A DNA stretch of 55,462 nt from Candidatus Aenigmatarchaeota archaeon (GCA_026397385.1 JAPLUY010000058.1:1-55462), one strand, 5' to 3'; positions 2,377-24,114 are shown, numbered from the stretch's first letter. The notes: generated from the letters alone by a model not told the origin. Translations and numbers: made by a program.

Positions 2377-2431
2377 GGTTGCTTTTAAGTAAATTATTAA
2401 AATTTTAAAAACTCCGAAAGAGAAGGTTAAT

Positions 2432-3037: not shown

Positions 3038-3046
3038 TGATTTTAT

Positions 3047-3436: not shown

Positions 3437-3459
3437 TTATCTTTTCTCCGAGTTCCAGA

Positions 3460-3716: not shown

Positions 3717-3806
3717 GTCATTTTTTGTTGTCGTGCACGTTCGTTTGCATTTAGTATGTCAATTAAGTTTAACACCTTGAAAAGGACAACCGAATTTTGA
3801 TAGGGC

Positions 3807-4739: not shown

Positions 4740-4745
4740 GAATAT

Positions 4746-4949: not shown

Positions 4950-4970
4950 GCAATCCCCTGAAATAATCTT

Positions 4971-5297: not shown

Positions 5298-5659
5298 TCC
5301 ACAGACCTTGTACTATAGAGTGTGCTGATGTAAAAAACGTCACGCGCCCCGTCGGGCAACTTCTCCTTCAACCCTTTGTTGGTAAGCCTGAAAGCGTCCT
5401 GTCTCCGGCCGCCGGCAACTCCCTTCCTCTCGCCGCTTTCTGTCTTGAAATATGCGGCTGGTCTGACCATCTTCTTGCCGTGATCCTCGACAAACCCTTC
5501 AATGCTTAGCTGAATGAGTATGTACAAGCTGGTTTGGTAATCGTAGCCGAATACGGATAGGTCCGTTGGAGCAACGGTTCTTTTTTCCTTTATGTAATCC
5601 AAAATCCTCTTCTTGTCGTAAGTCACCATCTTCAGAGGCACTTCCTTCAAGAAAACCAC
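5294..5659 (-). CDS. hypothetical protein, possible winged-helix (121 aa; start GTG 5659 or ATG 5629)
   Basis: GC3-rich ORF that overlaps ogt by 4 nt (ATGA) and abuts the GNAT stop. No family recognised. Confidence 0.5.
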   Translation of the reverse strand: MVFLKEVPLKMVTYDKKRILDYIKEKRTVAPTDLSVFGYDYQTSLYILIQLSIEGFVEDHGKKMVRPAAYFKTESGERKGVAGGRRQDAFRLTNKGLKEKLPDGARDVFYISTLYSTRSVE

Positions 5660-6220
5660 CTACCTCTTCATATCCATAATGAACTCGTCGATGAGCTTGC
5701 CTTTGTAGCTTATGCGCCTCGGCAGGCGCGCGACAGTGCGGAAGCCGAGCTTGCGATACATGCGTATCGCGCCTTTGTTCGGAACGTACACCTGCAGCGT
5801 GATTACTTTGATGTTCCTGTCCTTCTTACCTATCTCGATTATGCGCTTCGATATCGCGGTCGCGATGCCGAGCCGCCTGTAGCCCTTCAGCACGGATATG
5901 CCGTACTCGGCCACGTGCTCGCACCTTCCCTCGCCCTTCGTCAGGTTTGTGATGCTGACGATTTTTCCGTCGAGCTCCGCAACAATCAGATGCACCCTGC
6001 CGCTACGTATCTCGGCCAGCATCTTTCTGAGCCACTTGCGTTCGGTCGCGAGCGTGAGGCGCTTGTATATTTGTATCATCGCCTGCTCGTCCACGAAGCT
6101 GTTGATGTAGTCCGTCATCTGCCGCAGGTCCTTCATCTCCGGACGCCGCAGCAGCACCGTGCGCCCGTCCTTCAGCTTCACGCGCTTCGGCTTGCAGAGT
6201 TTGATGCACACACAAATCAT
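5660..6220 (-). CDS. GNAT family N-acetyltransferase (186 aa)
   Basis: Acetyl-CoA binding motif GYRRLGIATAISKRII followed by NKGAIRMYRKLGF. ATG at 6220. Confidence 0.85.
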   Translation of the reverse strand: MICVCIKLCKPKRVKLKDGRTVLLRRPEMKDLRQMTDYINSFVDEQAMIQIYKRLTLATERKWLRKMLAEIRSGRVHLIVAELDGKIVSITNLTKGEGRCEHVAEYGISVLKGYRRLGIATAISKRIIEIGKKDRNIKVITLQVYVPNKGAIRMYRKLGFRTVARLPRRISYKGKLIDEFIMDMKR

Positions 6221-7442: not shown

Positions 7443-8042
7443 ATGAACAGAAGGATTAGGCATGGACAGAGAGGCAGGAATCCGGACGTACACGAAGCGC
7501 ACAATGTACACAACGTGCATAACGCGCATGATATCCGCGGCTCGCACGACCGGCAGGCGAAGAGCGTCAGTGGCGACGAGAGGCAGTTCGTGAAGACGCT
7601 GCACGAGAAGAGCGTCGGCGCTGTCATCTTCAGGCACGTGCGTCTCGGACGCAAGGAGACGGTCGTCTACCTGCTCCTGCACTACCACCTGCACAGCGAC
7701 TACTGGGAGTTCTCGCGCGGCGGCATGGAACCGGGGGAGAACGAGCGGCAGACCGCGGTGCGCGAGATCCGCGAGGAGACCGGGCTGAAGGAGGAGGACC
7801 TGCGTTTTGCAGACGGCTTCCGCACGGCGATACACTACTTCTACATGCTCGACGGGACGCGGCGCTCTAAGGACGCCGTATACTTCCTGGCCGAGTCGAA
7901 GACCGACGCCGTGAAGCTCTCGTCCGAGCACGCCGGTTTCACGTGGGCGGAGTACGACGACGCGGTGAAGAAGGTGACGTACGAGAACGCCAGGCGCGTG
8001 CTCAAGGAGACGCACGACTTCCTCGCTTCAAAAGGCTTTTAA
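7443..8042 (+). CDS. NUDIX hydrolase (199 aa, His-rich N-terminal extension)
   Basis: Nudix box GGMEPGENERQTAVREIREETGL. A TATA-like AAATATAAAAGG lies about 35-40 nt upstream of ATG 7443. An alternative GTG start near 7590 is possible. Confidence 0.85.
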   Translation: MNRRIRHGQRGRNPDVHEAHNVHNVHNAHDIRGSHDRQAKSVSGDERQFVKTLHEKSVGAVIFRHVRLGRKETVVYLLLHYHLHSDYWEFSRGGMEPGENERQTAVREIREETGLKEEDLRFADGFRTAIHYFYMLDGTRRSKDAVYFLAESKTDAVKLSSEHAGFTWAEYDDAVKKVTYENARRVLKETHDFLASKGF

Positions 8043-8065
8043 AACCTGAAGCGCAATTAAGATAC

Positions 8066-8213
8066 GGGCCCATAGCTCAGTTTGGTTAGAGCGCTGGTCT
8101 TATAAGGCCGCTGAGCGTGGGAAGAAACGCATCTGGCGTAAAAACCAGTGGTCACGCGCGTGCGCAGCAATGTGTTCGCGAGCCACAAATGGGTTCGAAT
8201 CCCATTGGGCCCA
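8066..8213 (+). tRNA. tRNA-Ile (anticodon UAU) with two introns
   Basis: Hand fold: acceptor GGGCCCA/TGGGCCC plus A73, D arm GCTC-AGTTTGGTTA-GAGC, anticodon stem CTGGT/ACCAG, loop C-U-UAU-A, T arm ATGGG-TTCGAAT-CCCAT. The gene is 148 nt long. It needs a ~38-nt insert after position 37 and a ~35-nt insert between the anticodon stem and the T stem. It is followed by TTTTTT. Confidence 0.75.
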
Positions 8214-9054
8214 TTTTTTCATTTTTTATGCCAAAACAGCCTATGCCATCCAGAATCCTGATTCTAGTCTCAACATCTGTGCGGATTGGACAAAATCCAA
8301 AATGCTTCCAAATCATGTATTTTGTAATGTGATTCGCGTTCGAGAAACCTATTTTCGACATCCATTTTTCAAGATTCTTTTTTCCATTCAAGTAAATTCC
8401 ATGAATGGTGCGATACTTTCCATACATATTGTCGAATTGCTCCATGTCTGGAACTTCTGTAACTTTGAAGCCGTGTTTTCTTAACATCAAAGAAACCTCT
8501 CTAACAAGCGTCTTATTTGCGAATCCTGCGGAAATGACAGGGTACGTATGCAACTTGGACTTCCTTTTTACCTTGAACGTTAGCGAAAAGTCTGTATCAG
8601 CCAGACCCCTCAGGAACGAATACTGCATTTCGTCAGAAGCCTCTTTTATCAGTTTTGGAATTCTGACTACATTCGTTTTCTTCCCCAAAGGTATGCCCAC
8701 GGTCTTGTTAAGGAAAGAGGCGACTGCTGAAGAAGAAAATGAAAGCCTGATTGAATTTTCTCCTTTAACGTATTTTAGAGTTAAACAAATCCCGTACAGC
8801 TTCTTTTTCAAGGGGATTACAACCTCTTCGTAATAAATTCTGTCTTCGGATGAATGACCATAATATTCTATCTGGTTTCTAGTTTGTCGTCTGTCATGGC
8901 CTCTATGGGCGCAACCATCGCCGACGTGTATACCGATGTCTTCTGACAATTCTCGAGAAAGATATCTAGGAACTGTTATTCCTCTGTTTTTATCCCAATA
9001 ATTGAAAACCACATGCGAATTATCGAGTCTTAATTTCATAAAAATGGTGAGCAA
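8152..9054 (-). CDS. LAGLIDADG-family endonuclease-like protein (free-standing; ~295-300 aa)
   Basis: AT-rich ORF with two LAGLIDADG-type motifs (DIGIHVGDGC and FLRGLADTDFS) and a C-terminal YLNGKKNLEKWMSKIGFSN segment typical of the family. An ATG at 9039 is the probable start. The last ~20 codons are antisense to the tRNA-Ile 3' half. Confidence 0.7.
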   Translation of the reverse strand: MLTIFMKLRLDNSHVVFNYWDKNRGITVPRYLSRELSEDIGIHVGDGCAHRGHDRRQTRNQIEYYGHSSEDRIYYEEVVIPLKKKLYGICLTLKYVKGENSIRLSFSSSAVASFLNKTVGIPLGKKTNVVRIPKLIKEASDEMQYSFLRGLADTDFSLTFKVKRKSKLHTYPVISAGFANKTLVREVSLMLRKHGFKVTEVPDMEQFDNMYGKYRTIHGIYLNGKKNLEKWMSKIGFSNANHITKYMIWKHFGFCPIRTDVETRIRILDGIGCFGIKNEKMGPMGFEPICGSRTHCCARA

Positions 9055-9191
9055 AAACTGAATAAGGCTATGTTGGAAAGGTCGGTTCCGATGAGTAAAT
9101 TTTACATCAAAAACGAAAACTTGAAAATGAAAGAATCGTTAAACAGTCTTGCAGAAGAAACTGCGCGCCCGCTCGAATCGGATGCGCGCCG

Positions 9192-9281
9192 TCAGCCTCT
9201 CGCTTCTCGTATGCGCTTCATTCTTCGCATCCGGCGCTTCTTCGTCTTCTTGCGCCGTTGGCGTTTCTCTCCGTGTGCCAT
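9192..9281 (-). CDS. very small basic protein, eL41-like (29 aa)
   Basis: Not in the ORF track. The minus strand encodes MAHGEKRQRRKKTKKRRMRRMKRIREARG*, with a KKR.RR.KR pattern like ribosomal protein L41e. A TATA-like CATTATATCTT (9301-9311) lies about 25 nt upstream of the ATG, consistent with a leaderless transcript. Confidence 0.4.
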   Translation of the reverse strand: MAHGEKRQRRKKTKKRRMRRMKRIREARG

Positions 9282-9300
9282 GGATAGATTTCGTTTCTTG

Positions 9301-9311
9301 AAGATATAATG
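9301..9311 (-). promoter_or_regulatory. TATA-like box for the eL41-like micro-ORF
   Basis: The minus strand reads CATTATATCTT, centred about 25 nt upstream of ATG 9281. Confidence 0.35.
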
Positions 9312-9363
9312 ATTGCTTACGCGCGGAGGAAATTTTCCAGACGCATTCGCGAAGGAAACGGAC

Positions 9364-9684
9364 TCAGTCCTTGAGCTGTATGCTCATGTGTATGCCCTGG
9401 GGCACGTTGACGCGCATGACCTGTCTCAGCGCCTTCTCGTCAGCCTGTATGTCGACTACGCGCTTGTGTATGCGCATCTCCCAGCGGTCCCACGTGGCGT
9501 TGCCGTGGCCCGTACCATCACCACAGGGCGTCTTCATGGTCGTTATCCTCAGCGTCTTCGTCGGCAGAGGAATCGGCCCGTGGTAGTCTACGCCGAAACG
9601 CTTCGCGATGTCCTTGATTTCGGTGCATATGCCGTCGAGTTGTTGCGGGTTCTTCCCCGACAATTTTATTCGCGCGACCTGCAT
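9364..9684 (-). CDS. rps10: 30S ribosomal protein S10 (uS10)
   Basis: [17 protein letters not shown]...GPIPLPTK...RWEMRIHKR is typical archaeal S10. ATG at 9684 (an upstream GTG at 9693 is also possible). A TTTAAATA box lies at about 9739-9746. Confidence 0.95.
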
Positions 9685-9712
9685 GTGTTTCACCGCTTAC
9701 GCGTTTCTATTT

Positions 9713-10270
9713 TCAATTAGTCTTTATTGAATTATCTGTATTTAAATGCTTTCTCCTCGAGCTTCTCCGGATTTCATCGAGAAAAATCTCCTCGCATAGT
9801 CCGTTGAGCTCGTTCTGGTACTTCAGCGGATCATGTTCCGTCTTGACCACGTTAAATGCTTCACCTTCGAGTGCTCCCATCGCGCCGAGCTCCGCGGCGA
9901 ATCCGCGGAATTCGCGCTCCTGCAGATCGAAAAGCCTGACGAAACGGTCTATCTTGGATTTTTCTATGCGCAGCTCCTTCGCTTTCGATGGTATGCGCGT
10001 GATATCATACGCGATCCACGAGCTCGTCGGGCCGTGCAGCGTCTCCTTGGTCAGCTGCAGGATTTTCCTGCGGCCTTCGTCAGGCTCGTCCATATCGTAT
10101 TCTATCGGAAGCGAATCCAGCACGCCGTCGGCCGCCAATCCGCGTTCGGGCAGGTATACGATGACACGCTCGGACGTTTCGAGGATATGCGCGCGACCTC
10201 CGACAGAGATTTCCGCAGGGACGTACATGTGTCCTTTCGCTATCCTGCTATAGTATACGGTCTCGTCCAT
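9713..10270 (-). CDS. hypothetical protein inserted between tuf and rps10 (~185 aa)
   Basis: GC3-rich ORF. ATG at 10270 lies about 28 nt downstream of a TTTTAAAT box (10294-10301), which suggests a leaderless start. The ORF track gives an upstream alternative start at 10291. No family recognised. Confidence 0.6.
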   Translation of the reverse strand: MDETVYYSRIAKGHMYVPAEISVGGRAHILETSERVIVYLPERGLAADGVLDSLPIEYDMDEPDEGRRKILQLTKETLHGPTSSWIAYDITRIPSKAKELRIEKSKIDRFVRLFDLQEREFRGFAAELGAMGALEGEAFNVVKTEHDPLKYQNELNGLCEEIFLDEIRRSSRRKHLNTDNSIKTN

Positions 10271-11763: not shown

Positions 11764-13974
11764 CTACGCCTCCTCTTCCTCGGCCGTGACCAGCTCGGCC
11801 AGGCCCTTGCGCTTGCGCACGACGTCTATGGTCTTCTCGCGCAGGTCGTTCGGCAGCTTCTCGAAGACTATCGCTATCATGCTGTAGAACCCGCGGCCGC
11901 TCGTTATGCTCTTCAGCGTCGCGTCGAACCCGAACATGTCGGCTATCGGGAGCTTCGACGTGATTATGGCCGCGCCGCGCTCTATAACGATGTCCTGCAC
12001 CTGGCCGCGGCGGTTCTCAACCTCGCGCGTGACGCCGCCTATCAGCTCCTCGGGTATGTCGATGCGTATGTTTTGCTTCGGCTCAAGGAGCGTTAAGTCC
12101 GACTTCATGAGCGCCTTCTTCAGCGTCGTACGGAACGCCGGGATTATCTGGCCGGGGCCGCGGTGGACCGGGTCTTCGTGCAGCTCGGCGTCCGTCAGCA
12201 CTATCTTCACGCCGGTAACGGGCTCCTTGCAGAGCGGGCCCTCGTCCATCATGCTCACGAACGCTTCCTTCACGAGCTCCATGACCTCGTTCATGTACTG
12301 GACGCCCTTGGTATCGTCGAAAATCATGCATTTGTTGTGTATCATTACAAGGTTCTTGGCCTCGTCGCTCTTCATCCCCAGCTTGACGAGGTTCTCCGTC
12401 ACGTCGCTCTTTTTCTTCTTCTGTTCGAACTCGGACGGTATGATGCCTTCGTTCATCGCATTCGTTATCTCCGAGCTCACAGGCGATGCTATGACCGTGA
12501 ACTTGTTGTGCTTGTTCGGCGAGCGTCCCTCGGTCTCGGGCGATTCTTTGAAGATTGCCTCGCGGTAGACGACGATGGGCTTGGACATCTCGACGTCCAG
12601 CCCTATCTCCTTCAGCTTGCGCTCGACCTTCGACTCGATGTGCAGCTCGCCCAGTCCGCTGATCAGGTACTCGCCCGTCTCCTGGTTGATCTTGATCTTC
12701 AGCGTGTTGTCCTCGCGGCTAAGCTGCTTCAGCGTGTTGATGAGCTTCGGCAGGTCCATCGCGTTCTTCGGCTCCACCGACTTGGTGACGACGGGCTCGA
12801 ACAAGTGCTTGATCTCCTCGAACGGCTCTATCTCCGTGCCGGCTTCGCACACGGTCTCGCCCGTATAAGCATCGGATATGCCGACGACAGCCGCGATGTT
12901 GCCAGCGACGACCTCTTCCGCCGGGATGCGTTGTATCCCCTTGTAAACGGCGACCTGTTGTATCTTCTCGTCCTTCTTCAGCCCGATCAGGTGCACGTCC
13001 TTGCCCTTCGAGATGCGGCCCGAGAATATTCGGCCCGCGGCTACGAAGCCCACGTGCGGGTCGGGCACCATCTTCGTTATGATCATCGCCAGCTTGCCGT
13101 CCGGGTTGCACGAGAGCATGTCCTTGCCGAGCTCGCTGTTCAGGTCGCCCTTCCATATCTTCGGCACGCGGTAGGCCTGCGCCACCTTCGGATTCGGCAG
13201 GTGCTGTATCATCATGTCCAGCACGACCTTGTGCATCGGCGCGATGCGGGCGAGCTCGTCGTCCTTGTCCTGGTTGACGAGGTCGATGATCTGCTTGAAC
13301 GTTATGCCGGTCTTCTTCATGTACGGTATGGATATGGCCCACTTCCGTGTGGCCGAGCCGAAGGCGACTGTGCCGTCGTTGACGTTGACCATCCACTGGT
13401 TCTTGAATTCGTCGTCCGCGTACTTGTGGATGAGCATGTTGACCTCTTCTATCCACTTCATGAAGCGCTCCTGCATCATCTCCGGCGACAGCTTCAGCTC
13501 GCGTATCAGACGGTCGACCTTGTTTATGAAAAGTACGGGCTTGACGCGCTCGCGCAGCGCTTGCCTGAAAACGGTCTCGGTCTGCGGCATCAGCCCCTCG
13601 ACCGCGCACACGAGGACTATGGTGCCGTCGACGGCGCGCATCGCGCGCGTGACGTCACCGCCGAAGTCGACGTGACCGGGCGTGTCGACGAGGTTGATGA
13701 GGAAGTCGCGGCCCTCGTATTCGTGTATCATGCTCACGTTCGCGCCGTAGATGGTCAGCTGGCGCGAACGTTCCTGCTCGTCGAACCAAGTGAACATGCC
13801 CGTCTCGACGTCACCGACGACCTTGTCCGACAGCATGCCGGCCCCGCCCATCAAGTTGTCAGTGAGCGTGGTCTTGCCGTGGTGCACGTGCGAGCTGGTG
13901 GCCACGTTGCGTATGCGCGTCGGGTCCGTCATGACCTCTTTGACGCGATCCATCGTGTCCTTGGTAGTCGCCAT
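11764..13974 (-). CDS. fusA: translation elongation factor EF-2 (aEF2)
   Basis: HVHHGKTTL, DTPGHVDF and NKVDR GTPase motifs, plus the diphthamide-site region HEDPVHRGPGQ. ATG at 13974 (the ORF-track start at 13986 is a TTG). Confidence 0.97.
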   Translation of the reverse strand: MATTKDTMDRVKEVMTDPTRIRNVATSSHVHHGKTTLTDNLMGGAGMLSDKVVGDVETGMFTWFDEQERSRQLTIYGANVSMIHEYEGRDFLINLVDTPGHVDFGGDVTRAMRAVDGTIVLVCAVEGLMPQTETVFRQALRERVKPVLFINKVDRLIRELKLSPEMMQERFMKWIEEVNMLIHKYADDEFKNQWMVNVNDGTVAFGSATRKWAISIPYMKKTGITFKQIIDLVNQDKDDELARIAPMHKVVLDMMIQHLPNPKVAQAYRVPKIWKGDLNSELGKDMLSCNPDGKLAMIITKMVPDPHVGFVAAGRIFSGRISKGKDVHLIGLKKDEKIQQVAVYKGIQRIPAEEVVAGNIAAVVGISDAYTGETVCEAGTEIEPFEEIKHLFEPVVTKSVEPKNAMDLPKLINTLKQLSREDNTLKIKINQETGEYLISGLGELHIESKVERKLKEIGLDVEMSKPIVVYREAIFKESPETEGRSPNKHNKFTVIASPVSSEITNAMNEGIIPSEFEQKKKKSDVTENLVKLGMKSDEAKNLVMIHNKCMIFDDTKGVQYMNEVMELVKEAFVSMMDEGPLCKEPVTGVKIVLTDAELHEDPVHRGPGQIIPAFRTTLKKALMKSDLTLLEPKQNIRIDIPEELIGGVTREVENRRGQVQDIVIERGAAIITSKLPIADMFGFDATLKSITSGRGFYSMIAIVFEKLPNDLREKTIDVVRKRKGLAELVTAEEEEA

Positions 13975-14010
13975 AAGAGTCACCAAAAAAAGTCAGCCAT
14001 ACGCCACAGC

Positions 14011-14613
14011 CTATCTCGCGCCCTCGGCCTCGCGCTCTATGCGCTCGCGCTCCTTCACGGCCTCGGACTTGGAAGCGTCGTTCTCCGACGCCGCCACGAG
14101 CTCGTTCGCCATGACGTCGGCTATCTTCACGCCCTTGCCGAAGCTCTTCCTGTACGCCGCCTGCGTGATGGTGCGCAGCGCCAGATCCATCCTGCGCTGC
14201 GGGCTCGTGACGACCGCGCGGCGGACGATTATCCCGCCGACCTGGTACGCCGCGATCTCCTCGCGTAGCGCCGCGTTCTCGATAGCGCGCACGAGCACCT
14301 CGACCGGGTTCTTCTTCGTGCGCTGCTCGATGATTGCAAAAGCAACCTCCAAGGTCTTGTACTCCTTGGTGTACTTGCCGCTCGTGACGTCCGAGCAGAT
14401 GACGTGCTTGCGGCTGCGGTGGCCGGGGACCATCATCTTCGTGATGAGCCGCTCGACTATGCTCATCTTCGCCTTGCCGTGCTGCGAGCTGGAGAACCTG
14501 CCGCTGCTGCGCGGTACTATCACAGGCTTCAACCCGATGTAGCGCTCAAGGCCCTTGTCGTTGACCTTCACCTCGGCCGTCGACCACTTGTCGAAAAGTT
14601 TCATCTCCATCAT
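14011..14613 (-). CDS. rps7: 30S ribosomal protein S7 (uS7)
   Basis: 200 aa with the typical archaeal S7 sequence and a position between S12 and EF-2. Confidence 0.95.
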   Translation of the reverse strand: MMEMKLFDKWSTAEVKVNDKGLERYIGLKPVIVPRSSGRFSSSQHGKAKMSIVERLITKMMVPGHRSRKHVICSDVTSGKYTKEYKTLEVAFAIIEQRTKKNPVEVLVRAIENAALREEIAAYQVGGIIVRRAVVTSPQRRMDLALRTITQAAYRKSFGKGVKIADVMANELVAASENDASKSEAVKERERIEREAEGAR

Positions 14614-14620
14614 GCATCGC

Positions 14621-15046
14621 CTATCTCGTCGGCTTCTGCTTCCTGCCCGCGACTATCTCCTCGAGCGAAATGCCGTTCACCTTCGATACCTTGTACTTCA
14701 CGCCGACCATCGACCCCTTCGGTCCGCCCTGGCCGCCTCCGATCTTCTCGACGATGACCTCGTCGTGCTCGTTGATCTTCTCGATCGCGTGGTTGCCCGG
14801 CACGTGCGCCGTGACCTGGATGTTGTTCTTTATCAGCTGCACGCGCACGCACTTGACGAGGCCGGATGCGGGCTTCTTCTGTTCCATGACACGCTTGTCG
14901 AGCACTATGCCGCGCACCTGCGGGGAGCCCTCGAACGGGTCCTTCTTCCACAGCCGCAGCTGGCGCCTCTTGTACTCGTTGCTCTTCCACCGGAACTTCT
15001 GCCGGGTCTTCTGCAGCTTCCTTCCCGAATACTCCCCAGGTGCCAT
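14621..15046 (-). CDS. rps12: 30S ribosomal protein S12 (uS12)
   Basis: 141 aa. KKPASGLVKCVRVQL is typical of S12, and the operon position is conserved. Confidence 0.95.
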   Translation of the reverse strand: MAPGEYSGRKLQKTRQKFRWKSNEYKRRQLRLWKKDPFEGSPQVRGIVLDKRVMEQKKPASGLVKCVRVQLIKNNIQVTAHVPGNHAIEKINEHDEVIVEKIGGGQGGPKGSMVGVKYKVSKVNGISLEEIVAGRKQKPTR

Positions 15047-15091
15047 ATGATCGCCATGTCTTGCGTCGTTTGTGTTATTTCCTTGCGCGTA

Positions 15092-15517
15092 CTACCTTAT
15101 AATAAGGTCGTCCGCCTTGTGATTTCTCTTAAGCAATTCTTTGTACAGCTTTAAATTCCTTCCATCGCGTCCGATGACCAGCGGACGGTTCTTCTTGTCG
15201 ACGTGCACCTCGACCACGATCCGGCCGTCGTCCTCGCTGCGGACGCGCACGGAGTTCGTCTGCGGTATCATCTTCTTCACGAACTCGACTAGGTTGTTCG
15301 AGAACTCGAACATCTTTATCTGGCGGCCGACGACCTGCTCGGCGCGCTTGACGCTCGCGCCGTTCTTGCCTATGGCGAGGCCGATCATGCCCTCCTCGAT
15401 GACGAGGCAGACGGAGTTGCTCTCTGGGTCCAGCACGCAGTCCTTGACGTGGACGTGCATCATGTTCTCGAAGAGCGTCATCATGCGGATTGTGTCCGTG
15501 TCGAAGTTCAGCTTCAT
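15092..15517 (-). CDS. nusA: archaeal NusA-like termination factor (two KH domains)
   Basis: 141 aa with GLAIGKNGASVKR and VIGRDGRNLK GxxG KH motifs. It holds the conserved position between L30e and S12. Confidence 0.9.
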   Translation of the reverse strand: MKLNFDTDTIRMMTLFENMMHVHVKDCVLDPESNSVCLVIEEGMIGLAIGKNGASVKRAEQVVGRQIKMFEFSNNLVEFVKKMIPQTNSVRVRSEDDGRIVVEVHVDKKNRPLVIGRDGRNLKLYKELLKRNHKADDLIIR

Positions 15518-15532
15518 AAGGATTTCAACTGT

Positions 15533-15808
15533 TCATCTCTTTATGGCAAGCACCATCACAGGGAAGGGCTTCCCGCATATCAGCCCGAGCTCCTTGCTGT
15601 CGCCTTCGAACGTCTCCATCCTGACGCCCGACAGCTTCGCGTCGTGCGAGAGTTCCGAAAGCCTGGCTTCGGGCGCGTTGTTCGCGACCACGGCCATCCT
15701 CGGGGAGCCGTTCCTTATCAGCTCGAGAGCCTCCTTGTAGCCGAGCACCGCTGCGCCGGCCTTAACGGCGGCGTGCACCTCGGTCTTCAGCTCCTCCTTC
15801 GTTGCCAT
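15533..15808 (-). CDS. rpl30e: 50S ribosomal protein L30e (eL30)
   Basis: 91 aa with an L7Ae/L30e-fold sequence (KLSGVRMETFEGDSKELGLICGKPF), in the conserved operon position. Confidence 0.9.
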   Translation of the reverse strand: MATKEELKTEVHAAVKAGAAVLGYKEALELIRNGSPRMAVVANNAPEARLSELSHDAKLSGVRMETFEGDSKELGLICGKPFPVMVLAIKR

Positions 15809-15890: not shown

Positions 15891-17069
15891 CTATTCAGCG
15901 GCCTCTTCCTCGGGCTTCACGTCCTCGAACTTGGCTATGAGCTCGAACATGCCCGTGCCCGACGGTATCAGCTGCCCTATCATCACGTTCTCGAATATGC
16001 CTTCGAAGTTGTCCACCTCGCCGCGTATCGACGCGCGGACGAGGTGCTTGATGGTCTCCTCGAACGCTGCGCGCGCCAGTATCGAGCTCTTCGTGCCTGC
16101 GACCCCGTAGCGGCCTATCGAGCGTATGTCGCCCGACATGGTCATTATGTCGCCCACGAGCATCAGGTGGCGGCGGTCGACGTCAAGGCCTTGCTGCTGC
16201 AGGGTGTCGAACGATTCGCTTATTATCAGGCTGCGCGCGGCCTCGATGCCCAGCACCGCCTTGGTCTCGTGCAGGTCGTTCGTGTACGTGCGCGTCTCGT
16301 CGACCTCCTTGATCTTCAGAGCCTCGGCCAGGTTGGAGCCGATGGTGCTGATCACCCAGTCCTCGCCCTCGCGGCGTATGACGGCGTTGCTTATGTTCGG
16401 CAGGCCGCCCACGTGCACCGCCATGATCTTCTCGCGGATCTTCTGCAGTTCCTTTATGGTCACGTCGGGCTTGGCCGCGATGGTGACGCCCTTGGACGAG
16501 GAGCGCACCTTGTCGACCTCCTTCACGCCGTCCAGCAGCGCCTTCACCGCGGACTCGACGGTGCCGACGCGGCGGCTGTCCTCGACGTCTATCTCGATGG
16601 TGTTCTCGGCGAGGTTGATCGTTATGCGCTTCGACACGTCCGTCACGCTCTTCTCGATCATGTCCTCCGCGACCTTGCGCGCGTCCTCCATGTTGTTGTG
16701 CTCGCGCTTGAGGAAAAGCGTCATCACGGGCGTCTCCGGCTCGCGCTTCGCGTCGAAAATCTCTATGAGGCGCGGAAGGCCGTACGTCACCTTCACGCCT
16801 GCGGAACCTGCGAAGTGGTACGTACGCATCGTCATCTGCGTCGCAGGCTCGGATATGCTCTGCGCTGTGATTATGCCGATGACCTCGCCCGGCTCGAAGT
16901 TGTCCTTCAGGTACTCCATCCGCGCGCGCTCGACGAACTTCTCCTTCTGGTCCTTGGTGAACTTGTGCTCCTTGCACAGGCGCTCTATCTCATCGACGGT
17001 CGACGGAGGGAATATCTTGTCCAGCTCGTTCGCCGCCTGCTCTGTCTGTTCTTCAGCCATGTGGTTCAC
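15891..17069 (-). CDS. rpoA2: DNA-directed RNA polymerase subunit A'' (Rpo1C)
   Basis: 392 aa. AQSISEPATQMTMRTYHFAG (trigger-loop region) and GTGMFEL near the C-terminus. It starts 4 nt after the A' stop. Confidence 0.95.
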   Translation of the reverse strand: MNHMAEEQTEQAANELDKIFPPSTVDEIERLCKEHKFTKDQKEKFVERARMEYLKDNFEPGEVIGIITAQSISEPATQMTMRTYHFAGSAGVKVTYGLPRLIEIFDAKREPETPVMTLFLKREHNNMEDARKVAEDMIEKSVTDVSKRITINLAENTIEIDVEDSRRVGTVESAVKALLDGVKEVDKVRSSSKGVTIAAKPDVTIKELQKIREKIMAVHVGGLPNISNAVIRREGEDWVISTIGSNLAEALKIKEVDETRTYTNDLHETKAVLGIEAARSLIISESFDTLQQQGLDVDRRHLMLVGDIMTMSGDIRSIGRYGVAGTKSSILARAAFEETIKHLVRASIRGEVDNFEGIFENVMIGQLIPSGTGMFELIAKFEDVKPEEEAAE

Positions 17070-17073
17070 CGTT

Positions 17074-20000
17074 TCATTTTATGCTGTCCGCGATATCCTT
17101 GAGGTTCAGGCCGGCGCGCGTGACCTTCGACGGGTCGAGGTTGTCCTCGCCGGGCACGAACTGGACGATGTGCTTGGCGCTGTCGCGCACCGTGCCGTCG
17201 TACTCGACCTTCAGGTCCTGCAGCGCTCCGACGAGCCTGCGTTCCATATAGCCCGAGTGCCTGGTCTTCAGGGATTTGTCCATCAGCGACTCGCGGCTGT
17301 TGATCGCGTCGAAGAAGAACTCGAACGGCGTGAGTCCGTCCTTGAAACCGCGGCCGACGAACCCGCGCGATTCTAGGCTGATGTCGCCGCGCTTGAAGTG
17401 CGGGAACGTGCGATTGAAGTAACCGCGCTCGATACGCTCACCCATGACCATCTCCTGGCCGACCATCGCTGCGGTCTGGACGAGGTTGACGAGGCTTCCA
17501 CGCGAGCCGCTCTTGGCCATCATGAGCGTGAAGCTCTCCTTCGCGTACTTTGCGATGATGTCCTCGACCTCGTCGATCGCCTTGTTCAGGCGCTTCTTGA
17601 TGTGCGCCTCGAGGCTGTCCTTCGCCGTGCGGCCGGGCAGTATCTTGATATCGCCGCGCTCGTATTCTGCGATGAACGCGTCGACGTCCTTCCTGACCTG
17701 GCCGATGGTCTGAGCTATCTCCGTGCGCGCGATCTCCGGCATGTCCTGGTCGGATATGCTGATCGAGAAGGCCGACGTCATCACCATCTGGATGGCCAGG
17801 CGCGTTATGTCGAATATGAACTTCTTCACAATTGTCGGGCCGTAATCCTTCTCAACCTTGTCCAGCACCTTGCCGGTGAACGCGCCTACCGCGGCGCCGT
17901 CTATAGTGCCCTTGAGCAGCTTGCCGTTCTCGATGACCACGTAGGCGTCGTGCTTGCAGTTTGCCTTGATGCAGGTGTCGCATCCCATGCAGGACTTGGC
18001 CTTGTGTTCGATGTTCAGCGTCTTCGGCAGGAAGAGGCTGAAGATTTCCTTTCCGGTCATCGTGCGTTTCGCCGGCAGCTCCATGTCCGTATCAACGGAC
18101 CGTATCATCTGTATGAACTCCTCGCGCTTGAACTCGTGATCGCCGTGCGTCAGCGCATAAAGCCCTGAGACGTAGTCGCGGTGCGCGCCTATGATGGGAC
18201 CGCTGAAGCGCGGGCTGCGTATGTTCTTCTGCACCGCCATGAGCGACCTCGCCTCGGCCTGGGCCTCTTCGGTCTGCGGCACGTGCAGGTTCATCTCGTC
18301 ACCGTCGAAGTCCGCGTTGTAAGGCGGGCACACGGCCACGTTCAGGCGGAACGTGCGGAAAGGCATGACGCGCACGCGGTGAGCCATTATGCTCATCCTG
18401 TGCAGGCTGGGCTGGCGGTTGAAAAGCACTATGTCGCCGTCGTGTATGTGGCGCTCCACTATGAAGCCCGTGTCCAGTTCTGTGGCGATGTCCGTCTTGT
18501 TGAAATCAGTAACCTTCTTCCTGTGGCCGTCCGGGCGTATGACGTAGTTGGCGCCGCCGTTGGTCTCGGAGCCGCTGAGCACTATCGCCTGCAGGTCCGC
18601 CTTGTTGACAGCGTTCACGCGCACCGGCAGCGTCAGTTCCCTGGCGATGCTTTCCGGCACGCCGACCTCGTCGATGTCTATCATCGGGTCAGGGCTGACA
18701 ACGGTGCGCGCGGAGAAGTTGACGCGCTTCCCTGCGAGGTTGCCGCGGAACCTACCCTCCTTGGTCTTCAGCCTCTGAGACAGCGTCTTGAGTATGCGGC
18801 CCGAGCGATGCCTCGCCGGTGGGACGCCCGAGATTTCGTTATCAAAGTAAGTGCTCACGTGGTACTGCAGCAGCTCCCACAGGTCCTCGATGATGAAGTC
18901 TGGCGCGCCGAGGTCTATGTTCTCGCGCAGGCGCTCGTTGATGCGAACGATGTCTACCAGCTTGTGCGTCAGGTCGTCCTCGGAGCGTTCGCCCGTCTCG
19001 AGCGTTATCGACGGCCGGACGGTAACTGGCGAGATCGGCAACAGCGTTATGACCAGCCACTCGGGCCGTATGGTCACGCCGATGGTCTTGAGGTCGTCGT
19101 CCGTCATCTTGGCCAGGCGCTCACGAAGCGCGGCCGCGGTGAGAGTGCCCTTGTCTTCGACGAACGTGTAAGGCTTGATGAACTTGAGCTTCGGCTGCTC
19201 CGAACCGCAGTACGGGCACTTTTTGTGGATGAGCTTCGCCACGTCCTTGATCTTGTACTTCTTCTCCTTCACCGTCTGGATGTCGGCTTCGTCCATAAGC
19301 GCTCGGCTGCAGCTCGCGCAGAAAAGTTTCAACATGCTGAAGAGGAACTTGGCATAATGCACGTGCACGATCGGCCTCGTCATGTCCAGTATGCCGAAGT
19401 GTCCCTGGCACTCGCCAACGCTGCCACCGCACACGCGGCACCGCACGCCCGGGTCGACCACGCCCAACCTGGGATCCATCAGCCCGCCTTCGATCGGATA
19501 GCCTTCCTGGTCATAAAGCTCGGTCTTCGTTATGCGCGCCACGGACATCTTCTTTATCATGTCCGGATTGAGCACGCCGAACTCGATGCGGCTGACGAGC
19601 GCGTCCGACGGGCGGACAACGATCTTCGGATATATCATCATGCTCTTCAGCTCGTCCAGCATCAGCTTGAACGCGTAGCTCATCGAGATGTCCACGACTT
19701 TCGACGCCGTGCATATCGGGCAGTAGCGGCGGTTCTTTATCTTGTCGTAGATCGCTGCGTTACCGCACTCGAGGCATATCGGCACGGTGGTCTTGTCCGA
19801 GTCGAACCTCTCCTTCAGCGTCAGCGCCGCGCCGTGCGCGATCAGGCAGTCCTTCTCCATCTCCCCGAGCCTCAGACCGCCTTCCTTGCTGCGGCCCTCG
19901 GTCGGCTGCTTCGTCAGCAATGCGACAGGCCCGCGCGAGCGCGCGTGTATCTTGTTGGACACCAGATGGTCGAGCTTCTGGTAGAAGCAGCTGCCGATGA

Positions 20001-21438
20001 ATATCTGCGCGTCGAACCGCCTTCCGGTGCGGCCGTCGTACATCGTCTCCTTGCCGTCGTTCTTGTATCCTGCGGCGTGCAGCTCCGAGCGTATCACATC
20101 CTCCTTGATCGCGTTGAACGGAGGGGCGTTGACGATGCGGCCCGCGACCGCGCCCATCTTTCCGCCGATGAACTCGAGCAGCTGCCCCATGGTCATTCGC
20201 GACGGTATGCCGTGAGGGTTGAAAATGACGTCCGGTACGACGCCGTCCTCGGTGAACGGCATGTCCTCGCGCGGGACTATGAGGCCTACGACGCCCTTCT
20301 GCCCGTGGCGGCTGGCGAACTTGTCGCCTATCTCCGGAACCTTCATGTCGCGTATGACGACCTTGATTAGCTTCGTGCCGTCAGTGGTCTCGCTGACGAA
20401 AACGCGGTCGACCACGCCCGTGTCCTCATGGCGGATCTTCACGGAAGTCTCGCGTATGTTCTCTACGCCCGTGATGAACTGGTCCATGGTGCCCAGGAAG
20501 CGCAGCGGCGACACGCGGCCGATCAGGACAGAATCGGAGCCGACGATCGCTTCGGGGTTTATTATGCCGTCCTCGGGCAGGTGCTTGTACATGTCCTCGC
20601 CCGCGTAGCCGCGAACTCCTGGCTCGGGTATGCCGATGATGTCCTCCTGGCCGCCCATGTATCGCTTCTGCTCGGCCTCGTAAGTGCGTGTCATCATGCT
20701 CCAGAACAGCCCGCTTTGGATCGAGCTCTGGTTGATTATAACTGCATCCTCCATGTTGTAGCCGTCGAAACACCCGACCGCAACGATTACGTTCGAGCCG
20801 TTCGGATGGCTGTCGTAGTTTATTATCCTGTGCCCGTGCGTGCGCACCAGCGGCTTCTGGGGATAGACCATTATGTTGGCCTTGGTGTCAACGCGGCTCG
20901 GATAGTTCGTCGCGAAAACTCCTATGCTCTGGCCGACCATCTTCGCTCCGTAGTTGACACGATCGCCACGGTTGTATTCCGTAAAAGGAATGAACGACGC
21001 CGACAGCCCCAGTATGATCGACGGGTCGAGCTCCACGTGCGTGTGATCGGGCATGATATTCTCTGGCTTGAGCGCGATGTACGAGCTTTCCTCCTCGTCC
21101 GTGTCCAGATATTCCACGACGCCGGCCTTTATGAGGTCGGACCAGCTCATCTCGCCCTTCTTTATCTTGGTGGCGATGTCATCGGTCAGCTTCGAGCGGC
21201 CGTTCTCCACGACTATCGCGGGTCTCCTGACCCTGCCCGAATCCGATAAGATGCGTACCTCGCCGAACTGGGGATAGTAGCAGACGTTGACCTGCTCGGA
21301 GAGTTGGCCGCTGCGCCTGTTCCGTTTTATCTCGCTGACCAGACCCGCAAAATCGCCCGTAGCACCGACGTAGTTCCCGTCAAGGAAGACGTCCGTCATT
21401 GCTCCTGTGGCAATTGCATCGTCGGCGTTCTTCGGCAT
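17074..21438 (-). CDS. rpoB1-rpoA1: fused DNA-directed RNA polymerase subunits B' (C-terminal half of Rpo2) and A' (Rpo1N), single 1454-aa ORF
   Basis: The first ~606 aa are RpoB' (ASRHGQKGVVG, Zn ribbon CLECGNAAIYDKIKNRRYCPIC, C-terminal FKLMLDELKSMMIYPKI). The frame continues without a stop into RpoA' (VSRIEFGVLNPDMIKKMSV, CRVCGGSVGECQGHFG, catalytic NADFDGDEMNLH). The junction is at nt 19561..19641. Confidence 0.9.
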   Translation of the reverse strand: MPKNADDAIATGAMTDVFLDGNYVGATGDFAGLVSEIKRNRRSGQLSEQVNVCYYPQFGEVRILSDSGRVRRPAIVVENGRSKLTDDIATKIKKGEMSWSDLIKAGVVEYLDTDEEESSYIALKPENIMPDHTHVELDPSIILGLSASFIPFTEYNRGDRVNYGAKMVGQSIGVFATNYPSRVDTKANIMVYPQKPLVRTHGHRIINYDSHPNGSNVIVAVGCFDGYNMEDAVIINQSSIQSGLFWSMMTRTYEAEQKRYMGGQEDIIGIPEPGVRGYAGEDMYKHLPEDGIINPEAIVGSDSVLIGRVSPLRFLGTMDQFITGVENIRETSVKIRHEDTGVVDRVFVSETTDGTKLIKVVIRDMKVPEIGDKFASRHGQKGVVGLIVPREDMPFTEDGVVPDVIFNPHGIPSRMTMGQLLEFIGGKMGAVAGRIVNAPPFNAIKEDVIRSELHAAGYKNDGKETMYDGRTGRRFDAQIFIGSCFYQKLDHLVSNKIHARSRGPVALLTKQPTEGRSKEGGLRLGEMEKDCLIAHGAALTLKERFDSDKTTVPICLECGNAAIYDKIKNRRYCPICTASKVVDISMSYAFKLMLDELKSMMIYPKIVVRPSDALVSRIEFGVLNPDMIKKMSVARITKTELYDQEGYPIEGGLMDPRLGVVDPGVRCRVCGGSVGECQGHFGILDMTRPIVHVHYAKFLFSMLKLFCASCSRALMDEADIQTVKEKKYKIKDVAKLIHKKCPYCGSEQPKLKFIKPYTFVEDKGTLTAAALRERLAKMTDDDLKTIGVTIRPEWLVITLLPISPVTVRPSITLETGERSEDDLTHKLVDIVRINERLRENIDLGAPDFIIEDLWELLQYHVSTYFDNEISGVPPARHRSGRILKTLSQRLKTKEGRFRGNLAGKRVNFSARTVVSPDPMIDIDEVGVPESIARELTLPVRVNAVNKADLQAIVLSGSETNGGANYVIRPDGHRKKVTDFNKTDIATELDTGFIVERHIHDGDIVLFNRQPSLHRMSIMAHRVRVMPFRTFRLNVAVCPPYNADFDGDEMNLHVPQTEEAQAEARSLMAVQKNIRSPRFSGPIIGAHRDYVSGLYALTHGDHEFKREEFIQMIRSVDTDMELPAKRTMTGKEIFSLFLPKTLNIEHKAKSCMGCDTCIKANCKHDAYVVIENGKLLKGTIDGAAVGAFTGKVLDKVEKDYGPTIVKKFIFDITRLAIQMVMTSAFSISISDQDMPEIARTEIAQTIGQVRKDVDAFIAEYERGDIKILPGRTAKDSLEAHIKKRLNKAIDEVEDIIAKYAKESFTLMMAKSGSRGSLVNLVQTAAMVGQEMVMGERIERGYFNRTFPHFKRGDISLESRGFVGRGFKDGLTPFEFFFDAINSRESLMDKSLKTRHSGYMERRLVGALQDLKVEYDGTVRDSAKHIVQFVPGEDNLDPSKVTRAGLNLKDIADSIK

Positions 21439-21465: not shown

Positions 21466-23049
21466 CTACTTCATCATCTTGTCGGGCGGCACCACGTTCT
21501 TCTTCAGTATCGCCTGGAGTGCCTTGCCCTCCTTCTCGTCCGTTCCCTTGGTGACCTCGGCCATGATGGCGAGGTATTTGCGCAGCCCTATCGTAGCGCC
21601 TTCGGGCGTCTCGCTCGTGCACAGCTTGCCCCAGTGCGTCGGGTGCAGTTCGCGCGCCTCGAAGTGCTCCTGCGTCGACGTCAGCGGCGAGAGCACGTTG
21701 CGCATGTGCGACATCGTCTTGATGAAGCTGCCACGCTCAAGGCGCTGGCTCACACCCGTACGCCCGCCTACCCAGCTGCCGATGGCGAGAGCGGACACGA
21801 GCTGGTTCGTCAGCACGTTCGACTCGACGATCGCCTGCAACGGGGGAACGCGGCCGCGCTTCGTGAGCTTCTGGTAGTTGTACGTTATGCGCGTTATCAG
21901 CCCCCACTTTCCGAGCAGTATCGAGCGGAGGAGTATCTCCATCAGGTCGCCCGACATCCTGAGGCGCTTGTTCGCATAATGGTCCAAATCGTCCTCCTCT
22001 ATCTTTCCCATGTGCAGCTTGATCAGCTTGCCAACGGCCTTCGCAAGGAAGATTGCCTTCTCGAGCCTGTTCGCCGGATCCTGTCCCAGGTGCGGGAGCA
22101 GGTAGCGATCCACCAGGCGCGTGGCGCGCTCGGTGCGGTACTCCTTCTGCGGGATCTTTATGTGAAGACCGATCTTGTCAAGCCCGTCGGCTGCGTTCGC
22201 GACGTCGGCCTCGTACAGGTTCGCATAGAACTCTTCCTGTATCTCAGGGTCGGTCGATATGACGGTGGCTATGTCCTTGTCCTTCTCCAGGCCGAGCGCC
22301 TTCATCAATATGGCGATGGGCAACTTGTTCACGTTAGCGAAGCTGATCGTGATGTTGCCGTTGTTCTTGCGCTCGACTATGTGTCGCTGCACGTAGCCGT
22401 CCTTCTCCGAGTGTATGCGCGCGATCTGGCCAACGCTGCTCGCGGCCACCGAGCTTATAATCGCCTTGTTCTGCGCTATCTCCTCCACTAGCACGAGGAT
22501 GCGCTCGGTACCGTTGACGATGAAGTACCCTCCCGGATCGTCCGGATCCTCGCCCGCTTCCACCAGCTCCTTTCTGTTCATGCCGGCGAGCGGACATATC
22601 TTGCTCTTCAGCATTATCGGCAGGTCGCCGAAGTTCACCCACAGGGTTTCGCCTTCGACGCCGTTCATCACCGGCGACATCTCGACGTACATCGGCGATG
22701 AGTATGTCAGGTTGCGCGTGCGCGCCTCCATCGGCATTACCCTGCGCTCCGAGCCGTCCGCCTCCTTTATCCACGGCCCCCAGTTCTCCTTGCCGATGCG
22801 GAAGTCGCCCAGTTTTATCTTGAAGTCGCCTATCTCGGGGACTTCGGGCTTGATCTCCTTTATCTCGCGCAGGATTTTCGGGATGCGTCGCGTTATAAAA
22901 TCGTCATAAGAGTCAACTTGGAACCTGACAAGCCCGCGTTCCTTGACGAAGGATGTCAGCATCCCGAGGAAGAGCTCGGAATTTCCGGATGCGGACAGCT
23001 CCCATTTGGGGTTGGGCGTTCCGTTTGTCTCTGTGTTCGTATTGCTCAT
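21466..23049 (-). CDS. rpoB2: DNA-directed RNA polymerase subunit B'' (N-terminal half of Rpo2)
   Basis: 527 aa with the typical RpoB N-terminal half (VRFQVDSYDDFI, GYFIVNGTERILV, THWGKLCTSETPEG). Its stop lies 27 nt upstream of the B' start. Confidence 0.95.
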   Translation of the reverse strand: MSNTNTETNGTPNPKWELSASGNSELFLGMLTSFVKERGLVRFQVDSYDDFITRRIPKILREIKEIKPEVPEIGDFKIKLGDFRIGKENWGPWIKEADGSERRVMPMEARTRNLTYSSPMYVEMSPVMNGVEGETLWVNFGDLPIMLKSKICPLAGMNRKELVEAGEDPDDPGGYFIVNGTERILVLVEEIAQNKAIISSVAASSVGQIARIHSEKDGYVQRHIVERKNNGNITISFANVNKLPIAILMKALGLEKDKDIATVISTDPEIQEEFYANLYEADVANAADGLDKIGLHIKIPQKEYRTERATRLVDRYLLPHLGQDPANRLEKAIFLAKAVGKLIKLHMGKIEEDDLDHYANKRLRMSGDLMEILLRSILLGKWGLITRITYNYQKLTKRGRVPPLQAIVESNVLTNQLVSALAIGSWVGGRTGVSQRLERGSFIKTMSHMRNVLSPLTSTQEHFEARELHPTHWGKLCTSETPEGATIGLRKYLAIMAEVTKGTDEKEGKALQAILKKNVVPPDKMMK

Positions 23050-23124
23050 GGCACCAGCTTTTGGCGGCGTTGAGGTCGCAAGCGGCTCGCGTTTGGTTCA
23101 ACAATCTTGCATGCGAAGGGTTAT

Positions 23125-23373
23125 CTACTTGAAAGCGCCGCGCACCACGACCCTGTAGTACACGGCCTTCCCGGCGGTCTGGCTTTCACGCACTATCTTC
23201 ACCACATCGCCGGCCTTGGCCTCTAGAAACTTGGCCATCGGGTCGGTTATCAGCAGTCTCGGCAGGTGGTTGAGCGTTATGTTGTAGCGCTCGAGGACTT
23301 CCTTCTTCTCCACGTCGCCGAGTATAGTGTGCTTCGGCACCATCTTATGCTTGGATATGTCGACTTCCTTCAT
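23125..23373 (-). CDS. rpoH: DNA-directed RNA polymerase subunit H (Rpo5)
   Basis: 82 aa. HKMVPKHTILGDVEKKEVLERYNI...LPRLLITDPMAKFLEAKAGDVVKIVR is typical RpoH, and it is the first gene of the rpo operon. Confidence 0.9.
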   Translation of the reverse strand: MKEVDISKHKMVPKHTILGDVEKKEVLERYNITLNHLPRLLITDPMAKFLEAKAGDVVKIVRESQTAGKAVYYRVVVRGAFK

Positions 23374-23411
23374 TGTACCGCCGTTTTTCGTCTTTTTTGC
23401 GAATCGCTTTG

Positions 23412-23484
23412 CGCCTCGAGCGGGATTTGAACCCGCGTCAAAGCCGTGACAGGGCTTTATGCTAGGCCACTACACCATCGAGGC
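23412..23484 (-). tRNA. tRNA-Asp (anticodon GUC)
   Basis: Hand fold of the reverse complement GCCTCGATGGTGTAGTGGCCTAGCATAAAGCCCTGTCACGGCTTTGACGCGGGTTCAAATCCCGCTCGAGGCG. Anticodon loop CTGTCAC, T loop TTCAAAT. Confidence 0.9.
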
Positions 23485-23974
23485 ATGTTCTGCGTCATCC
23501 GTGCAAGGTATCGGCGAGGTCGCCAGATACGCATACTTCATATCACTTTTTTAAGTATCATCCGTTCATCCGCCAGCGCGAGTGTTCAACAGCGCTGTCA
23601 CGACCCTGTCCGAACACCTAGACTTGGAGCACATCTCTAGCTTGGAGAAATCGTCCAGACTCAGCAAATCAAAGAAGCAGTTCGCTGTTGTCTGTGTCAA
23701 GCTGTCACCTGAACTATCGCATTTCGGTCGCCGGAGTACATGCGCGACGTTGAATAAATGAGGTTGGCAGCGTCCTGGTTTTCCCGAGCAGGTGCTCAGT
23801 ACAGGCCACTTCGCGAAGCATCTTAATTACTGTGTTCGAAATGGGAACAGATGTTTCCTGCTTGCTTTGACCGCCAACCAAATATTAATTTACTATTGTA
23901 ACATCTTAAATCTTTTAAATCTATCGGTTTTGACCCTTTCCGAGCCGGAAACGGCCCTTGAGGATGAAAACGAG

Positions 23975-24114
23975 TCCCGACTCCCGGATTTGAACCGGGA
24001 ACCTGTACCGGCGAGGCATCGCTGCCCGCTACCGGTGGTTGCCGAGCAATTGCTGGCGACAAACGCAGCTGCGCTCGTCTACAGCCGGTTGCTCTACCGT
24101 TGAGCTAAGTCGGG
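23975..24114 (-). tRNA. tRNA-Tyr (anticodon GUA) with one long or two shorter introns
   Basis: Hand fold: acceptor CCCGACT/AGTCGGG plus A73 (the C1-G72 pair is typical of archaeal tRNA-Tyr), D arm GCTC-AACGGTA-GAGC, anticodon stem ACCGG with loop CU-GUA-G, T arm CCCGG-TTCAAAT-CCGGG. The gene is 140 nt, so 66-68 nt must be removed. My preferred parse is 42 nt after position 37 plus 26 nt in the variable-loop region. Confidence 0.75.

Follow-up and report, generated by a model that had tools for sequence, protein, structure and literature searches.

A probable inherited fusion of the RNA polymerase genes rpoB' and rpoA' in Candidatus Aenigmatarchaeota

A single reading frame for RpoB' and RpoA'

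Contig JAPLUY010000058.1 of a Candidatus Aenigmatarchaeota archaeon (GCA_026397385.1), the 55,462-nucleotide stretch of DNA analysed here and referred to as the window, carries on its minus strand an open reading frame (ORF) in which two RNA polymerase (RNAP) large-subunit genes, rpoB' and rpoA', run together. The ORF occupies 17074..21438, begins with ATG at 21438, ends with a TGA stop at 17074-17076 and encodes 1454 amino acids with an estimated mass of ~163 kDa. The ORF list, the translation and the Pfam matches all bear out the preliminary description of the locus, made from the sequence alone, as one continuous B'-A' frame, and place it on the minus strand. The RpoB' (Rpo2C) moiety (19612..21438, minus; aa 1-609) comprises Rpb2 domains 4-7, with Rpb2_4, Rpb2_5, Rpb2_6 and Rpb2_7 matched in order at aa 17-607 (E-values down to 1e-130), and finishes with the strand IYPKIVVR. 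Its C-terminal end aligns with the final ~130 residues of archaeal B chains of solved structure. The RpoA' (Rpo1N) moiety (17077..19599, minus; aa 614-1454) comprises Rpb1 domains 1-4 and the start of domain 5, with Rpb1_1 to Rpb1_5 matched at aa 615-1433 of the fused protein. The B' moiety carries the Cys4 zinc motif of the C-terminal clamp (CLEC...CPIC; CLECGNAAIYDKIKNRRYCPIC in the translation), the cysteines of which are invariant across the homologue alignment, and the A' moiety carries the catalytic NADFDGD motif (YNADFDGDEMNLH).

The junction had been placed at nt 19561..19641, which corresponds to aa 600-626. Within it, the connector that separates YPK in B' from IEF in A', both conserved, is the 12-residue segment IVVRPSDALVSR (19588..19623, minus; aa 606-617), giving the layout ...DELKSMMIYPK-IVVRPSDALVSR-IEFGVLNPDMIKKMSV...; the translated junction peptide at aa 598-633 reads ...SMMIYPKIVVRPSDALVSRIEFGVLNPDMIKKMSV..., and the predicted tryptic peptide that spans it is IVVRPSDALVSR. 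There is no free B' C-terminus, as no stop lies between aa 607 and aa 615, and no start for A' either, as the connector is devoid of ATG, GTG, TTG and any Shine-Dalgarno (SD) motif. Reading the junction also upheld the earlier remark that no in-frame ATG, GTG or TTG separates the end of B' from the conserved A' block; none lies from beyond M600/M601 up to IEFG. M600 and M601 themselves belong to the conserved B' motif SM[ML]IYPK. The first in-frame start-type codon past the B' end is a GTG at V622, inside the A' block, and in the sister population this codon is GTC.

Conservation and distribution of the fusion

The preliminary description had left two options, a genuine lineage-specific fusion or a stop codon lost through sequence error. 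In close unfused relatives the two genes share one reading frame and only a single stop separates them, so a one-base error in sequencing or assembly that dropped a stop or frameshift from the contig could mimic a fusion. The independent Logan assembly L083 (run SRR20698647) encodes exactly the same protein, however, from DNA that differs at 1 of 4365 nt. Contigs from two other samples (L081, ENA; L082, JGI) encode the nearest homologue (P0001, 97% amino acid identity). The same junction is found in a sister lineage recovered from two samples, in 120 homologue clusters and in 33 GTDB species genomes, and the start codon and SD motif of A' are gone as well, which would need several mutations. 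Error is thereby refuted as the source of the open frame, its residual probability being negligible.

The sister lineage, 92% identical to the window, differs at 346 nt, with 289 synonymous and 37 non-synonymous codon differences. Between aa 590 and 640 none of its 12 codon changes alters an amino acid and the junction stays open, a pattern of purifying selection on one reading frame that runs through the junction. The same codon counts speak against a decaying, non-functional RNAP copy, in which case the frame would be a pseudogene-like read-through and the working polymerase would be encoded at another site. That explanation arises only since the window is part of a genome and has no positive evidence. 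The ORF lies within a canonical rpo/str operon, its NADFDGD and zinc motifs are intact, and the same fused architecture is present on relatives' contigs of up to 783 kb; a pseudogene is accordingly regarded as extremely improbable.

A protein search returned more than 7000 RNAP matches, of which the 120 best clusters (52-97% identity) were analysed. Every one of these 120 has its Rpb2 and Rpb1 domains within one protein and an uninterrupted junction when aligned, which puts the continuity of the junction far beyond chance. Their lengths are ~1420-1460 aa (B'-A') or ~1910-1930 aa (an unsplit B fused to A'), apart from a few at other lengths (1171-1629 aa) that include at least one record labelled partial. 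The connector from YPK to IEF has 12 residues in 69 clusters, 10 in 26, 11 in 17 and 13 in 9. Named sources are nearly always "Candidatus Aenigmatarchaeota/Aenigmarchaeota", a DPANN phylum of the kingdom Nanobdellati. The database names give one subunit only: such proteins appear as "subunit A'" at NCBI, and as "subunit A'" or, for some unsplit-B entries, "subunit B" at JGI. When 1.84 billion cluster representatives (50% identity) were searched exhaustively with HMMER, the fused family collapses at this clustering level to one representative, the only strong junction-spanning match; beyond it were found a few short fragments and two full-length junction-spanning singletons (P0135 and P0250, described below).

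Scanning one genome per GTDB species with the junction peptide (tblastn) gave 80 loci, L001-L080. A continuous B-A' ORF is present in 33 of the 80, mostly labelled Aenigmatarchaeota or "uncultured archaeon", with a few others (L049 "Nanohaloarchaea", L050 "archaeon", L022 "uncultured bacterium"). The remaining 47 are unfused, with one to three in-frame stops followed by Met, and include all loci labelled Woesearchaeota, Nanoarchaeia/Nanoarchaeota, Parvarchaeota or Naiadarchaeum together with several Aenigmatarchaeota. The survey of related genomes thus bears out the option of a genuine fusion. The qualifier "lineage-specific" needs widening, as the fusion extends over much of Aenigmatarchaeota, has several probable origins and exists also in the unsplit B-A' form.

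Structure of the junction

A PDB sequence search with the junction gave as its best match 3QQC chain A (2.5e-57), whose annotation lists three subunits, B, A' and A'', within a single chain. The alignment across the junction is gapless, the window segment from MIYPK to LNPD pairing with 3QQC VIRPKLNLSEGGKVIGSIEFGILSPQ at the same 12-residue spacing. 3QQC is an engineered P. furiosus recombinant clamp (rClamp), in which B 1053-1115, A' 3-318 and A'' 334-371 are joined by short Gly/Ala/Ser linkers; the construct was soluble, bound Spt4/5 and crystallised (Martinez-Rucobo et al. 2011, PMC3094117). As rClamp folds and binds Spt4/5, a B-to-A' tether of equal spacing has experimental precedent.

An AlphaFold2 model of aa 540-940, built from an alignment of 50 fused homologues, has a predicted template modelling score (pTM) of 0.72. 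At the junction it places a strand at aa 602-609 (IYPKIVVR), a turn at aa 610-613 (PSDA) and a second strand at aa 614-622 (LVSRIEFGV), with per-residue confidence (pLDDT) of ~80-87. Among the Foldseek matches of this model 3qqc_A ranked first (E = 5.6e-31, TM-scores 0.73/0.77), ahead of A' chains from archaeal RNAP structures. In the model the connector is therefore predicted to consist of the native tails of the two subunits forming a tight hairpin rather than an added flexible linker. The statement in the preliminary description that the two termini are close in the enzyme finds support in both the 3QQC structure and the secondary structure, confidence and fold match of the model.

Origin of the fusion

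In close unfused relatives rpoB' and rpoA' abut in the same frame, the A' ATG lies 0-2 codons past the B' stop, and the final B' codons, or the stop itself, contain an SD-like motif (GAGGT, GGAGG, AGGTG or GGTGA). Examples of such junctions are ...IVTKEV-stop-KMQVDRIEF in L004 and L015 (stop codon TGA), ...KEAG-stop-IMIVGSIEF in L007, ...LGE-stop-MIEKIKSIDF in L024 and ...EEI-stop-MTDAF... in L035. Since stop, SD motif and ATG abut in one frame in these relatives, the fusion most likely originated by loss of the stop codon. A point mutation removing the rpoB' stop would have joined the two same-frame ORFs, and the A' start codon and SD motif, no longer needed, would then have decayed. Among Aenigmatarchaeota-clade loci an SD-like motif precedes the A' start in 16/21 unfused loci and occurs at the equivalent place in 2/33 fused loci (Fisher p = 1e-7), and the connector is free of Met in 22 of the 33 fused loci, the window's among them.

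All 47 unfused loci retrieved have rpoB(') and rpoA' in the same frame, often with the ATG 0-2 codons past the stop, a figure to be read in the light of their retrieval by junction-spanning tblastn, which favours same-frame neighbours. For this reason a same-frame arrangement is not claimed as a general property of DPANN archaea and is applied here only to the close unfused relatives of fused lineages. In two unfused loci (L007 5425-6351 and L015 1986-2417) the B' frame is itself interrupted further upstream, leaving stop-to-stop ORFs of 308 and 143 aa, which may reflect frameshift or assembly error in low-coverage contigs of metagenome-assembled genomes (MAGs), or pseudogenisation.

Gains, losses and polymerase architectures

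The number of gains and losses was assessed on a neighbour-joining tree of concatenated B' C-terminal and A' sequences (81 taxa, 1413 columns, 100 bootstraps, corrected p-distances). The tree rests on the polymerase's own sequences, and support is weak (35%) for the branch that sets L007/L021 apart from the main fused clade. The window falls in a large fused, B-split clade that joins the unfused L007/L021 with 100% support. Three further fused groups lie apart from it: L025-L033, with unsplit B (100%), grouped with the unfused L016/L032 (100%); L048/L050, grouped with the unfused L054 (100%); and L049, grouped with the unfused L039/L040 (100%). Nested inside the main fused clade with 84-85% support is the unfused pair L004/L015, two independent MAGs with a common TGA, SD motif and ATG, which is read as a putative secondary fission. 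Recoding of this TGA is unlikely, as an SD motif (GAGGT) and an ATG follow the stop in both MAGs.

By parsimony the distribution takes ~4-5 gains and 1-2 losses (about 6 events), versus ~11 events under an ancestral fusion. The tree thus indicates that the fusion arose at least four times, apparently independently, and was undone once in a nested lineage. One ancient fusion with many later fissions is the less parsimonious account, and the differences in connector length (10, 12 and 13 residues) and sequence between fused clades agree with independent origins.

Considering only those of the 80 loci with all three junctions readable, the four large-subunit genes are all separate (B'' / B' / A' / A'') in 33 loci, and the window type (B'' / B'-A' / A'') is found in 24. 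Unsplit B occurs as B / A' / A'' in 4 loci and as B-A' / A'' in 6-8, and one locus has the architecture B / A. In this last locus (L034 3034-9909) an unsplit B of 1102 aa and an unsplit A, with A' and A'' in one 1185-aa ORF, are separated by TAG. Together with the unsplit-B loci L016, L032, L047 and L054 it documents that the B''+B' and A'+A'' joins vary within Aenigmatarchaeota too.

Other fused polymerases

The two singletons of the HMMER search extend the range of fused architectures, each on a single contig. P0135 (2214 aa; L084 4732-11376, an 18.7-kb Logan SRR24908257 contig) has B'', B'-A' and A'' in a single ORF, with aa 17-480 aligning to B'', 513-1812 to B'-A' and 1845-2209 to A'', at ~30% identity to the window protein. 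By its alignment it appears to be a complete single-chain RNAP catalytic core, a singleton observed on this one contig. The contig is of archaeal type and very compact, and its genes overlap (S19e ... S12, S7, EF-2, FEN1, GatB/GatA). P0250 (2786 aa; L085 3427-11787, a 23.5-kb Logan SRR12927082 contig) has Rpb2 domains, a charged spacer of ~75 residues and a full Rpb1. Its contig consists mostly of ORFans, almost all neighbours having no Pfam match, and may belong to a giant-virus-like or other non-cellular element. A third protein, P0133 (1025 aa, on a 5.5-kb ENA contig), joins a complete B' (Rpb2 domains 4-7, to aa ~599) to ~425 residues that are not A' and give only a weak HTH_23 match, representing a different B' extension or fusion.

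Genomic context of the window

The fused ORF is embedded in a minus-strand operon that opens with rpoH (Rpo5; 23125..23373, RNA_pol_Rpb5_C). It is followed by rpoB'' (Rpo2N; 21466..23049, minus), a separate gene of 527 aa with Rpb2_1/2/3 and a GGTG SD motif at 23052-23055. Downstream, 13 nt past the stop of the fused ORF, lies rpoA'' (Rpo1C; 15891..17060, minus), a separate gene of 389 aa matching the C-terminal part of Rpb1_5. Pfam thus agrees with the original observation that rpoB is still split into B'' and B', and rpoA into A' and A''. The mechanically called rpoA'' ORF begins at a GTG at 17069 (15891..17069). The true start is probably the ATG at 17060, since a GGTGA SD motif (17066..17070, minus) stands 5 nt upstream of it and the gene calls on L081 and L083 give 389 aa. 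The GGTGA also shows that the host uses SD-led starts inside operons, and none is present at the B'/A' junction. The minus-strand block from L30e (15533-15808) through NusA-KH (15092-15517), S12 (14621-15046) and S7 (14011-14613) to EF-2 (11764-13986) spans 11764..15808 and completes the order rpoH-B''-B'A'-A''-L30e-nusA-S12-S7-EF2, which is the canonical archaeal rpo/str context.

Directly upstream of rpoH, a tRNA-Asp gene (23411-23484, minus) and a 5S rRNA gene (23762-23878) head the RNAP operon. Rfam tRNA matches at 8066-8213 (plus, 148 nt) and 23975-24114 (minus, 140 nt), not called by ARAGORN, are probably intron-containing archaeal tRNAs, and a partial tRNA match at 36265-36325 (minus) adjoins a tRNA-Arg (36177-36250). 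The regions 2001-6000 and 8001-10000 of the window have a G+C content of 38-46% against a background of ~57-60%, and may be foreign islands, or RNA-rich or ORFan regions.

Discussion

Our results make it highly probable that the window carries a genuine, inherited gene fusion that arose by stop-codon loss and gives rise to a tethered B'-A' polypeptide of ~163 kDa, with B'' and A'' remaining separate. Such a polypeptide would link the C-terminal half of subunit B to the N-terminal two-thirds of subunit A. The last B' strand (IYPKIVVR) and the first A' strand (LVSRIEFGV) would adjoin in the RNAP clamp, and the fusion would merely close the four-residue turn PSDA between them. With only this turn closed, the normal architecture of the enzyme would be kept and B'' and A'' would assemble as separate subunits. 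Likely consequences for stoichiometry and assembly are an obligatory 1:1 synthesis of B' and A' and the intramolecular assembly of the clamp. In these small, compact genomes the fusion is probably close to neutral or of mild advantage, in keeping with its several gains and its occasional loss.

Several points weigh against this reading. The fused polypeptide is known from metagenome sequences alone, and a single chain in cells is what we infer from them. Translation might initiate internally at M600/M601, at M627/M631 or at a non-canonical codon, and the connector might be cleaved by proteolysis. A Met is kept at the ancestral A' start position in 11 of the 33 fused loci, so that free A' may still be produced in some lineages. 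Any functional benefit is conjectural, recurrent gains and a reversal being equally compatible with neutrality. The corresponding alternative is a continuous ORF from which two polypeptides are nevertheless made, by internal initiation near the junction or by cleavage of the connector, yielding a conventional enzyme. The in-frame methionines flanking the junction and those retained in the 11 loci would allow it, and SD-less initiation is possible on some archaeal mRNAs. The connector in the window has no start codon, however, and the SD motif is lost in fused genes and kept in unfused relatives. Initiation at M627 or M631 would remove the conserved strand with which A' begins and which pairs with the B' tail, and the connector is modelled with confidence as a tight hairpin turn rather than as an exposed loop. 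On balance the production of two polypeptides is improbable, and a single tethered chain remains the preferred interpretation.

Natural fusion of rpoB and rpoC (beta-beta') is reportedly found in Helicobacter and Wolbachia, from work by Zakharova, Severinov and colleagues. The likeness to the window, drawn already in the preliminary description, is apt in topology. In both cases a single ORF links the second-largest subunit, by its C-terminus and in frame, to the N-terminus of the largest, adjacent genes of one operon are fused, the whole lineage inherits the product and the fusion is tolerated since the termini neighbour each other in the enzyme. Here too the fusion is inherited and conserved across a lineage under purifying selection. 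In contrast to the full-length bacterial beta and beta' subunits, the partners here are the archaeal split fragments B' and A', and the core consists of three polypeptides (B'', B'-A' and A'') instead of one. The connector is made up of 10-13 native residues predicted to form a hairpin, and at least four origins and at least one reversion appear to have occurred within one phylum. The window fusion is therefore best viewed as a topological analogue of the beta-beta' fusion and not as a family member by descent.

The operon rpoH-rpoB''-rpoB'-rpoA'-rpoA'' is the canonical split arrangement of methanogens and halophiles, and it is also found in loci labelled Woesearchaeota and Nanoarchaeia, among other DPANN labels. 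The window agrees with it in gene order, domain content, split points and catalytic motifs but lacks the rpoB' stop, the rpoA' start and its SD motif, which reduces four large-subunit genes to three. The closest structural counterpart, rClamp, has the same tether from B C-terminus to A' N-terminus with identical spacing. Unlike the natural fusion it is artificial, uses a Gly/Ala/Ser linker, contains clamp fragments only with A'' tied in, and includes no complete catalytic subunit. A secondary A'+A'' fusion has been reported for Pacearchaeota (Da Cunha et al. 2017, PMC5484517). As in that case, split and fused states change secondarily in fast-evolving DPANN lineages, and A'+A'' and B''+B' joins occur within the Aenigmatarchaeota clade as well (L034, L016 and others). 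The halves of one ancestral subunit are rejoined in Pacearchaeota, whereas two different subunits, B and A, are joined here.

No account of an archaeal B-A' fusion was found in the open-access literature, where the report of A'+A'' in Pacearchaeota comes nearest; this is absence of evidence and not proof of novelty, and the sequences themselves are not new, being already in public databases. To our knowledge, textbook accounts list the splits of the large subunits and mention no joining of B to A. In mechanism the fusion is not surprising, as bacterial precedents and the engineered clamp exist.

Archaeal RNAP is a model for the core of eukaryotic Pol II, and the fusion suggests that the clamp tolerates covalent closure in vivo, as the engineered construct had suggested. 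Recombinant archaeal RNAP and clamp constructs could draw on the fused proteins as single-chain designs found in nature, and the case as a whole offers a clean example of a rare genomic change that may be useful to RNAP structural biologists. As a genomic character the fusion is cheap to score and could help to sort Aenigmatarchaeota lineages, with care, as it is homoplastic (several gains and at least one loss). Marker-gene pipelines for annotation and phylogenomics that expect separate RpoB and RpoA could mishandle the fused proteins. A broader reading, on which the evidence is finely balanced and leans slightly to the negative, is that RNAP architecture in Aenigmatarchaeota is unusually fluid, with B-A' gained at least four times and reverted at least once alongside re-fusions of B''+B' and A'+A'' and the single ORF of L084, and that tethering is driven by selection and not by drift alone. 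If true, a fusion between subunits would be described for the first time in an archaeal RNAP, and the selective force may be, for example, assembly fidelity or stoichiometry in tiny, low-expression symbiont cells.

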